Source: a virus. Taken from it: 64,000 nucleotides of DNA. The stretch spans positions 316,878-380,877 of IMG/VR virus record IMGVR_UViG_3300025030_000039. The stretch is one strand, 5' to 3'. The notes under the pieces were generated by a model. The model saw only the letters and a program-made list of their open reading frames with translations. It did no database searches and was not told where the DNA came from. The position numbers and the translations under genes were made by a program. This document shows, piece by piece, positions 56,504 to 57,688 of this stretch (the first letter of the stretch is position 1; every line of letters begins with the position of its first letter).

Positions 56504-56571
56504 TAGGACTAGTGGGAGCTGAACCCACGTTATCGGTTTTAGAGACCGATTTCTAACCACTAGATAGTCCC
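56504..56571 (-). tRNA. amber suppressor tRNA (anticodon CUA), compact body
   Basis: GGGACTA T CTA GTGGT TAG AA TCGGT CTCTAAA ACCGA TAAC GTGGG TTCAGCT CCCAC TAGTCCT A. Anticodon loop C-U-CUA-A-A. Acceptor, anticodon and T stems all pair; the D arm is short. Confidence 0.6.
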
Positions 56572-56577
56572 CTTTGT

Positions 56578-56754
56578 GATTGTAGAAGGACTCGAACCAA
56601 CAACCCCTCACTTTCAAATTACTGACAAAAATACTATTAAGCGTCCCTAAATTCATTTTGTTTTTATTCTATTTATTATAAATATATCATCCACTTATGC
56701 GCTATAAGCTTATATACACCTACAATAAAAATAAGACTCTAACCATTGAGCTAT
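56578..56754 (-). tRNA. split-looking tRNA-like locus: 5' half (acceptor GGTTGTA, D arm GCTCAATGGTTAGAGT) and 3' half (TTCGAGT T-loop, acceptor TACAATC) separated by about 100 nt
   Basis: The 5' GGTTGTA at about 56748-56754 pairs 7/7 (one G-U) with TACAATC at about 56579-56585. The T-stem is poor (GTTGG/CCTTC). Possible intron-containing gene or pseudogene. Confidence 0.3.
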
Positions 56755-56782
56755 ACAACCATGTAAATATAATTAAAAAGAT

Positions 56783-56810
56783 CGAAATATAAAAGGCTTA
56801 TAAGCCTTTT
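56783..56810 (-). terminator. possible terminator overlapping the stop of 56798..57232
   Basis: AAAAGGCTTA TAAGCCTTTT with a moderate T-rich tail. Confidence 0.35.
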
Positions 56811-57232
56811 ATATTTTTATAGAATGTTCCTTTTTCATCTTTATAATCTTGTAATGCTAAATCTGCAGCATCTTTTAACTTTAGCCATTCTTTACGAAGC
56901 TTTTGAATTCTTTCATGCTGCTCAGATACTAATTTAACTCTTTCATCTGATTTTAAAATCTCTTTAGCAACAAAATGAAATAATCTATTTATACTACCTA
57001 AACTATTAACAAATCTACATTTATTTAAAAATCTTTTAAGCCTTTTTCTATCACATATTCCTAAATCAGTTATATGACTTTCTTTTACTTCTTGTAAAAG
57101 ATCTTGTTTACCTTTAAAGGTATATACCTTTTTATCATCAATAATTGTGTTATTTTGTAATTTTTCAATTTCATTTATTGTATTATAATATTCATTGAAC
57201 AAATTTGCGTTGTGATCTACTATTTTTTCCAT
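56798..57232 (-). CDS. hypothetical protein
   Basis: ORF only. Confidence 0.35.
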   Translation of the reverse strand: MEKIVDHNANLFNEYYNTINEIEKLQNNTIIDDKKVYTFKGKQDLLQEVKESHITDLGICDRKRLKRFLNKCRFVNSLGSINRLFHFVAKEILKSDERVKLVSEQHERIQKLRKEWLKLKDAADLALQDYKDEKGTFYKNIKGL

Positions 57233-57346
57233 TGTTTTAAATTTTTTATTTTAAGTTGTTTTATTTTTGTTGGGTTTGTAATTAATTTAAAACAAATACG
57301 TAGGACCTCTAATTGTAATTTTAATCTATTTCATAACTTTAATTTT

Positions 57347-57688
57347 TTAAATTTCACGAAGCATAAGTGGTAAACTTGAACATATTCTTTTAGACTCAAT
57401 TCCTGGCTCAACAGCAATTGCAGTAAGTTGATTGCCTATATCAGGTTCTCTAAATTCTGTATAAGCCAACTTAGAATGCATAAATTTAGAAATATACTTT
57501 TCTAATTCGCATTCATTTTTAACAGATAATAAACAAAGATAATTTGAATTTTTATTCCAACATTTAGAAATTTCTGGATATTGATGTTGAAAATCTATAG
57601 CAGCATGTGTAGCCTGAACTGCCTGATAACCAGGCTTTAAATCTTCCCTAGTAATAATAATTAGTTTATGATTATTAATCTACTTCAT
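57347..57688 (-). CDS. PTH2-family peptidyl-tRNA hydrolase paralog with in-frame TAG at codon 3 (requires amber readthrough or a non-ATG start)
   Basis: ATG AAG TAG ATT AAT... then ...LIIITREDLKPGYQAVQATHAAIDF...LTAIAVEPG..., which parallels the Pth2 signature of 28887..29327. A promoter motif copy lies 17 nt upstream of the ATG. Absent from the ORF track because of the TAG. Confidence 0.45.

Follow-up and report, generated by a model that had tools for sequence, protein, structure and literature searches.

The stretch of viral DNA analyzed here (the window) comprises 64,000 nucleotides (nt), positions 316,878 to 380,877 of the IMG/VR record IMGVR_UViG_3300025030_000039, and carries on its minus strand a transfer RNA (tRNA) with the anticodon CUA, here called tRNA(CUA), as well as a gene of the Pth2 family of peptidyl-tRNA hydrolases that is interrupted by an in-frame TAG. 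This Pth2-like gene (57347..57688) consists of ATG (57688-57686), AAG (57685-57683), the TAG at codon 3 (57682-57680), 110 sense codons, and a terminal TAA (57349-57347); the base that follows the TAG is an A, the first letter of an ATT codon. We refer to such an early in-frame TAG as an amber gate and to genes that have it as gated. If the TAG is decoded, the predicted product has 112 amino acids. The tRNA(CUA) gene (56504..56571) lies about 0.8 kb downstream of the gated gene in the direction of transcription and on the same strand. The initial annotation of this DNA had drawn attention to the ATG AAG TAG start with its 110 open codons, which we confirmed in the sequence, and had named a convincing alternative start past the TAG as the finding that would speak against it; the first ATG, GTG, or TTG downstream of the TAG is 66 codons away. 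Genome-wide counts were made on LR756500.1, an unannotated 462,018-bp record of an uncultured huge phage with a guanine-plus-cytosine (GC) content of 24%, to part of which the window is 100% identical (record position = window position + 54149).

The identity of the suppressor tRNA stood up to two independent callers. ARAGORN (56503-56571) assigned the anticodon CTA, in agreement with the anticodon arm TCGGT-CTCTAAA-ACCGA of the initial annotation, and the gene scored 43.7 bits with the Rfam tRNA covariance model, whose gathering score is 29. Its D-arm is degenerate, and an A26-T44 pair lengthens the anticodon stem. A standard ARAGORN scan of the 462-kb genome found no further suppressor tRNA, and pairwise comparison with the 25 other ARAGORN tRNA genes of the genome revealed no clear paralogue. 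We rejected an identity as pyrrolysine tRNA (tRNA-Pyl), a label that ARAGORN puts on any CTA anticodon. A tRNA-Pyl would be recognizable by a D-loop lacking GG, a missing T-psi-C, a variable loop of only 3 nt, and just one base separating the acceptor stem from the D stem. In the window tRNA, GG is present in the D region and the T-loop contains TTC, and its relatives are ordinary cloverleaf tRNAs of 72-77 nt. Nearest-neighbor typing of 68 tRNA(CUA) against 230 other tRNAs gave no clear source for the isotype of the suppressor. The residues aligned at TAG sites were equally uninformative on the inserted amino acid: Thr or Ala in ungated relatives, Trp in a DUF6794 gene described below, and Glu or Asp at the second TAG of some Pth2-like genes.

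Next, we asked what the gated gene encodes. The 110-amino-acid product following the TAG matches the Pfam family PTH2 (PF01981) with 30.8 bits against a cutoff of 23, profile positions 2-103 corresponding to residues 5-96, so that the domain begins five residues past the TAG. A profile built from 54 relatives matched solved Pth2 chains with E values from 6e-9 to 5e-8. The AlphaFold2 model of the gated protein reached a predicted local distance difference test (pLDDT) score of 96.6, and the top 14 Foldseek matches were all Pth2 or Bit1 structures, mostly with template-modeling (TM) scores of 0.72-0.81; on archaeal Pth2 and human Bit1 the model superposes with TM scores of 0.77-0.81. The gated protein is thus predicted, with a model of high quality, to have the Pth2 alpha/beta fold, and PHROG 1866, a family labeled “unknown function,” takes it in. 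The histidine of the xHA motif is retained (H25, in at least 90% of relatives), and the acidic position, which is the Asp of DAG in the canonical motif, is an invariant glutamate (E78 of FREPD). As the initial annotation had implied in calling this a second Pth2-family gene, a canonical paralogue is present as well: an ungated Pth2 of 146 amino acids with a normal ATG and no in-frame TAG (28887..29327, minus strand; taken from the open reading frame [ORF] list and found by tblastn with ORF295 of Xanthomonas phage XacN1, 43% identity). Because the phage already has this ungated enzyme, we infer that the gated one is a specialized paralogue. A third, very distant Pth2-like sequence (…FYEPDLNN…; 25% identity to the gated protein, E = 0.007) is located just outside the window, at record positions 51062-51352 on the minus strand.

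To place the gate in a wider context, we searched IMG/VR with the family alignment and used the best 80 of 213 relatives, together with loci from other searches. The resulting table of gene anatomy and tRNA linkage covers 77 non-redundant viral loci that encode the Pth2-like family. In 63 of them an ATG is followed by a few sense codons, the in-frame TAG, and the domain (KLxVITRxDL...), with no canonical start between. Once loci found via their tRNA had been added, the set comprised 75 distinct gated genes, whose leaders, counted with the ATG, are mostly two codons long (39 genes) and otherwise have three (20), four (11), or five to seven codons (5); the gate is hence fixed at codon 3-8. The leader residues vary (MK, MT, MS, MCL, MSL, MKDT, and others), the TAG being the constant feature. 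Within the subset of 61 gated loci in which gene ends and the sequence directly past the TAG were tallied, gated genes never end in TAG (TAA in 44, TGA in 16). Extra TAGs occur within the gene in some relatives, for example in LR756501 and locus L123. Related huge-phage records are present in the same collection as LR756500.1 (LR756501-504 and LR745206), and the four largest huge-phage records (LR756501/LR756503, LR745206, and LR756504) share the gate.

Gated genes have diverged to 35-45% protein identity, and their frames are intact past the TAG in independent assemblies and in three cultured phages. Judging by this sequence comparison, the gate is evidently under selection. It could be argued that the gene has merely decayed into a pseudogene, or that the TAG arose by recent nonsense mutation or through faulty assembly, and that the adjoining tRNA(CUA) is a coincidence; only one TAG is involved, which a single transition could have produced from CAG or TGG, and the other in-frame TAG of this genome falls at a conserved Trp. 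This explanation is hardly credible, given that the identical layout is found in about 75 distinct diverged genes with intact frames and a conserved fold, those of the three cultured phages included.

The initial annotation had further raised the possibility that the interrupted gene is paired with the suppressor. Indeed, an early TAG and a same-strand tRNA(CUA) recur together in dozens of distinct phage loci. Scoring tRNA(CUA) within at most 5 kb of sequence around each locus, we found it at 53 of the 63 gated loci and at none of the 12 loci without the TAG, and all 67 linked tRNA(CUA) genes are on the strand of the gated gene, often either about 140 nt upstream or 0.4-2 kb downstream of it. 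The 12 ungated loci comprise contigs of high GC content that are relatives of mycobacteriophages Bxz1 and Myrna, and a single low-GC locus that has 20 other tRNAs. We also approached the association from the opposite side, starting from 70 viral loci picked by a tRNA sequence pattern alone, in 61 of which ARAGORN confirmed a tRNA(CUA). A Pth2-like gene was present near the tRNA in 28 of these 61 loci; about 17 of the genes are gated, and the other approximately 11 belong to the family more distantly and, despite a normal start, still adjoin tRNA(CUA). Fourteen more of the loci matched, by tblastn, another gated family that we call Y and describe below.

Taken together, we consider it probable, with good confidence, that the conserved amber gate makes synthesis of the enzyme depend on the co-encoded suppressor tRNA, as judged from sequence. 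Ribosomes would start at the ATG at 57688 and meet the UAG after two codons. There, either the host release factor would terminate translation, leaving a dipeptide, or the phage tRNA(CUA) would decode the UAG and allow synthesis of the 112-amino-acid Pth2-fold hydrolase. The enzyme would be made only if the suppressor is expressed, processed, and charged, and its amount would scale with suppressor activity, so that the gate would work as a natural AND gate or sensor. Its position in the unstructured N-terminal tail would allow any inserted amino acid to be tolerated and would keep the abortive product down to a di- to tetrapeptide.

Several observations weigh against this dependence or reduce the force of the counts. 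The loci are phylogenetically related, and their numbers overstate the independent events; likewise, the Fisher p of 1e-6 for the association of gate and tRNA(CUA) is not a true probability, as the loci are not phylogenetically independent. Ten gated loci had no tRNA(CUA) within the sequence stretch examined. The base past the gate is a purine in 61 of 61 loci (A in 49, G in 12), and a purine in that place is the context that older E. coli work (Bossi 1983) reportedly linked to efficient suppression; this regularity is confounded by the conserved Ile or Val residue at that place. The basic GKGK lysine loop of canonical Pth2 is replaced by PGYQ in the gated protein, and hydrolase activity is thus only predicted. 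Finally, in the window, as in 41 of the 61 loci, the TAG is followed by ATT, which is known to serve as a weak start codon, and initiation or re-initiation might take place there.

This last point leads to a different reading of the locus, in which ATG-NNN-TAG is a separate leader mini-ORF of two to four codons, the hydrolase starts at the near-cognate ATT or by re-initiation, and tRNA(CUA) is irrelevant. AUU is a rare bacterial start codon, used for example by infC, and genes for initiation factor 3 (IF3) are present in about 10 of the related loci. However, in 15 of the 61 loci the next codon is unusable as a start (GTA, GTT, ACA, AGC, AAC, GCT, or GGC), and the leader is in frame in every case, which re-initiation does not need, within scans of relatives that covered in-frame leaders only. 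Moreover, at loci with a GC content of at least 0.36, the motifs GGAG, GAGG, or AGGA are found 6-16 nt upstream of the leader ATG in 16 of 20 cases; these Shine-Dalgarno sites, whose spacing fits the leader ATG, argue for initiation at that ATG in lineages with hosts that, to judge by GC content, use such sites. Downstream initiation also leaves the covariation of the gate with the presence of tRNA(CUA) unaccounted for, and two families unrelated to the Pth2-like one share the gate, with AAC, CTT, GTT, or ACC often as the next codon. We therefore regard downstream initiation as improbable.

Another possibility raised by the initial annotation was a partial reassignment of TAG in late genes, in the style of some Bacteroidota phages. 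A code in which TAG is an amino acid codon (code 15-like), at least in late genes, would make the Pth2-like gene one of many recoded genes, and several features point in that direction: a suppressor tRNA is present, the GC content is low, and TAG is the rarest stop. That TAG stops are few had been noted before and is borne out by 5 of 89 window ORFs of at least 100 codons ending in TAG. For stop-to-stop ORFs of at least 200 codons in the whole genome, TAA is the stop of 214, TGA of 21, and TAG of 15. The extra in-gene TAGs of LR756501 and L123 fit recoding too, and public gene callers have used code 15 on some short contigs. However, TAG terminates 20 of the 364 ORFs of at least 150 codons genome-wide, and reading it as sense raises the total long-ORF length from 290.7 to only 295.3 kb, a gain of 1.6%. 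Inspection by eye showed that the two best candidate merges across a TAG are adjacent gene pairs, in which the ATG of the second gene lies one or two codons past the TAG. Back-up stops past true TAG terminators were no closer than past TAA or TGA (p = 0.29).

Homology validated only two in-frame TAGs in the 462 kb, one in the Pth2-like gene and one in a DUF6794 gene outside the window (record positions 394639-395067, minus strand). The Pfam domain of the latter (E = 2.6e-24) spans its TAG, which falls in a column that is mostly Trp in 24 homologues (IRNN-W-GLW) and would look like a TGG-to-TAG change tolerated by the suppressor. In a genome-wide scan for an ATG followed within 15 codons by a TAG and a long ORF, the Pth2-like gene came out far ahead of all others. 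No GGQ or release-factor gene was found in the genome by tblastn and a motif scan. Many of the related loci also end other long ORFs in TAG. For internal TAGs in the flanking genes of these loci, homology validation was swamped by antisense shadow ORFs and abandoned, and a crude comparison of coding coverage among the loci is indicative only. Of the features of a code 15-type genome, this phage therefore has the tRNA(CUA), whereas widespread in-frame TAGs and TAG-free termination are absent. Together with the fixed position of the gate, unlike the scattered TAGs of recoded genes, this leaves the reassignment without support and makes a code 15-like genome very improbable. That TAG works as a true stop elsewhere refutes recoding, not the gate.

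The gate is also found in cultured phages, although public annotation tends to hide it. Tenacibaculum phage pT24 (LC168164) has ATG AAA TAG ATA... ahead of the domain, the gene beginning at about record position 194083, and 2.6 kb upstream there is an annotated tRNA-Sup; the coding sequence as annotated starts at an internal ATG. In Xanthomonas phage XacN1, ORF364 begins with ATG AAG TAG ACC..., and the homologue in Stenotrophomonas phage RAS14 is alike. The annotated GTG start of the RAS14 gene falls within a conserved motif; the annotated ATG of the XacN1 gene follows the TAG by only four codons and may truly be used as an alternative start. The gene annotated as Pth in XacN1 (ORF295) turned out to be a canonical, ungated Pth2. 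The authors of the XacN1 genome reported two tRNA(CUA) genes and could identify no target genes (PMC5852040). In the public records examined (P0001-P0031; L104-L107), many entries for the family carry an artificial glutamine at the gate, and other entries were cut short by calling the start at an internal GTG or ATG (P0032, P0048, P0081, and P0114). We likewise discarded the “Q” at this position in close database homologues (MTQINQKL...) as evidence for glutamine insertion: the DNA has TAG, and the genes were called in code 15.

To see which other genes share the arrangement, we scanned all loci systematically for ORFs with an early TAG. Three gated families recurred: the Pth2-like family (93 loci), an HD-like family (14), and family Y (12). 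The HD-like family became apparent through pT24, whose hydrolase carries an additional C-terminal domain of about 190 amino acids as a fusion; homologues of this domain are directly beside the Pth2-like gene, or fused to it at either end, in about 20 loci. The domain has an HD-type metal-phosphohydrolase signature (QHG ... HDxGKPxC ... HFPNH ... DMxxH) and weak, sub-threshold matches to the HD region of an A-adding tRNA nucleotidyltransferase (PDB 3wfo, E = 2e-3) and, among NCBIfam models, to those for HDIG and the CCA enzyme. Where the HD-like gene stands alone, it carries its own early TAG (e.g., M L X V Q L I Q D M or M S T X L Q L T R D M, X marking the TAG). Family Y, with the motif FHFNKKxLED...PMWV...TKETPDNxHTKG, was found at about 40 loci in all (e.g., L016 5296-5550 and L115 from 6128). 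Its gated genes start 20-40 nt after tRNA(CUA) in the three loci checked (L115, L139, and L142), and in at least 17 other loci an ungated Y gene and the 3' end of the gated hydrolase gene overlap. No match above cutoff to Pfam, PHROG, or NCBIfam was obtained for either the HD-like domain or Y. Neither was found in the genome of the window, which would represent a minimal version consisting of tRNA(CUA), the gated hydrolase, and the gene between them.

That intervening gene, ORF144 (56798..57232, minus strand), had no Pfam, PHROG, or NCBIfam match above cutoff. Homologues are located just upstream of tRNA(CUA) in 12 non-redundant loci, and ORF144 may be part of the module. A terminator-like hairpin directly follows it (56785..56816, minus strand; one site found by the terminator scan against 0.2 expected), which suggests that the Pth2-like gene and ORF144 form a single transcription unit, with the tRNAs downstream. 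The promoter that the initial annotation placed ahead of the gated gene did not hold up: there is only a TATAAT hexamer about 18 nt upstream, as expected by chance at 24% GC, and a sigma-70 scan called no promoter. On the upstream side, a YqeY/GatB-like gene (57745-58167, minus strand; Pfam YqeY, 2e-10; PHROG “tRNA amidotransferase”) ends 57 nt before the gated gene. A similar gene precedes the gated fusion of XacN1 by 1.2 kb; as a conserved neighbor the gene was rejected, since it is not kept in related loci.

The window is rich in further tRNA genes. ARAGORN detected 22, spanning positions 7279 to 63093 and all on the minus strand, and two that ARAGORN had missed were added by Rfam, one scoring 46.6 bits (60095-60165) and the other, a partial gene, 38.7 bits (54230-54290). 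A transfer-messenger RNA (tmRNA) gene is located at 40360-40772 on the minus strand (Rfam, 95.5 bits; tag GNNAEMRMAA). Directly upstream of tRNA(CUA), at 56576-56760 on the same strand, there is a tRNA-like gene that is split, its acceptor, D, and T arms being well formed. The intron mode of ARAGORN reads it as tRNA(UUA), with an ochre-suppressor anticodon and a 112-nt insertion in the anticodon loop, an uncertain call with a weak anticodon stem; Rfam did not detect it, and its arms resemble the tRNA(CUA) of locus L016. Other suppressor-type tRNAs were seen near Pth2-like genes elsewhere, namely, a tRNA(UUA) in L011 (1000-1070) and a tRNA(UCA) in L012 (3421-3493), the latter just downstream of an ungated Pth2-like gene.

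What might a suppressor-dependent hydrolase be for? The phage keeps an ungated canonical Pth2, ungated relatives of the gated enzyme adjoin tRNA(CUA), and the partner domain resembles HD domains that act at tRNA 3' ends; these observations suggest a 3'-end task that is tied to the suppressor. By linkage and analogy, it is likely that the gated enzyme and its HD partner act on the acylated 3' end of tRNA in such a task. As to its nature, negative feedback on charged or peptidyl-tRNA(CUA) is our tentative first choice; the clean-up of peptidyl-tRNA from readthrough and ribosome stalling comes second as a possibility, and pure timing or leak control seems rather unlikely. More broadly, it is tempting to speculate that the Pth2-like, HD-type, and Y genes form an “amber-gated regulon” that, together with tRNA(CUA), makes up a self-regulating module, whose gated enzymes would set or limit stop-codon suppression by acting on the acylated 3' end, either that of the suppressor or that of readthrough-affected tRNAs. 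We consider this broader picture possible but speculative. If it is true, the module would explain why jumbo phages with a standard code retain tRNA(CUA), and it may be a seed of full TAG recoding.

Alternatively, the gate could be real and yet serve only generic timing or the damping of leaky expression. In that case, the hydrolase would recycle peptidyl-tRNA in the usual way and would not be connected with the suppressor in particular. Early amber codons and a suppressor tRNA serve in just this way to remove leak from engineered circuits (PMC7969014, PMC11669171), and the genes around the gated gene serve translation and tRNA repair in general (Thg1, CCA-adding enzyme, IF3, and tmRNA). In contrast, a gate for generic purposes would be hard to reconcile with the presence of the ungated canonical Pth2, with ungated distant family members that still adjoin tRNA(CUA), and with the recurrence of only three gated families in genomes that hold hundreds of genes. 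We find a purely generic role doubtful, and favor a task of the gated enzyme that is tied to the suppressor.

We found no mention of the gate arrangement in the recoding literature, the huge-phage and jumbo-phage papers, or the related reviews that we searched, and the amber gate on the Pth2-like family appears not to have been described before. Its significance would be severalfold. Standard-code phages often carry tRNA(CUA) without known clients, and the gated hydrolase, often with an HD-type partner, supplies a conserved one. The simple signature of the gate can be used to find and annotate genes that are now mis-started, missed, or given an artificial glutamine, and its presence in pT24, XacN1, and RAS14 makes the proposed switch and the inserted amino acid directly testable. 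The arrangement also bears on how stop-codon recoding begins in phages.

Among known systems, the gated enzyme has counterparts in the Pth2 proteins of jumbo phages and of cluster C mycobacteriophages (Bxz1 gp154 and Myrna gp84), which belong to the same family with 38-42% identity and are encoded in tRNA-rich genomes with tmRNA. These members differ in that their start is normal and both the TAG and a nearby tRNA(CUA) are missing, and a review that covers phage Pth2 does not mention suppressors (Iyer et al., PMC7824862).

With regard to the logic of the gate, prfB, which encodes release factor 2 (RF2) and contains an in-frame UGA, infC with its AUU start, and antizyme are comparable in that an early recoding site in a translation-factor gene reports the decoding state. 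As in prfB, the product requires the bypass of an early in-frame stop, here a TAG at codon 3 with no alternative canonical start. The two differ in mechanism, prfB using a +1 frameshift that senses its own product, whereas the phage gene presumably relies on a dedicated tRNA that suppresses the stop in frame. The linkage with tRNA(CUA) in both directions is the only ground on which we infer that the gated product may likewise feed back on its own decoding event. The bar minigenes of phage lambda, two-codon ORFs followed by a stop, are a classic source of peptidyl-tRNA drop-off that is recycled by Pth. Here, a two-codon ORF and stop head a gene for a peptidyl-tRNA hydrolase, a resemblance that is a lead and not a test; the bar minigenes are free-standing, out of frame with the downstream enzyme, and have no suppressor tRNA.

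Code 15 phages (Ivanova 2014; Borges et al., bioRxiv 10.1101/2021.08.26.457843; Peters 2022, PMC9523058) share with the phage of the window a tRNA(CUA) that reads, or here would read, an in-frame TAG, as well as low GC content and rare TAG stops, and the suppressor tRNA has been proposed to be a post-transcriptional regulator in them. In these phages, however, 26-71% of genes contain TAGs, which are scattered through late genes, whereas here the code is standard and a single fixed TAG marks one family. The preprint by Borges et al. makes no mention of a hydrolase or of peptidyl-tRNA. Engineered feed-forward and AND gates (PMC7969014, PMC11669171) come nearest in design, since they obtain tight conditional expression from a co-regulated suppressor tRNA and amber codons placed early in the gene. 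While those circuits are synthetic, the amber gate of the Pth2-like gene would be a natural example of suppressor-tRNA logic and their widely conserved counterpart in phages.

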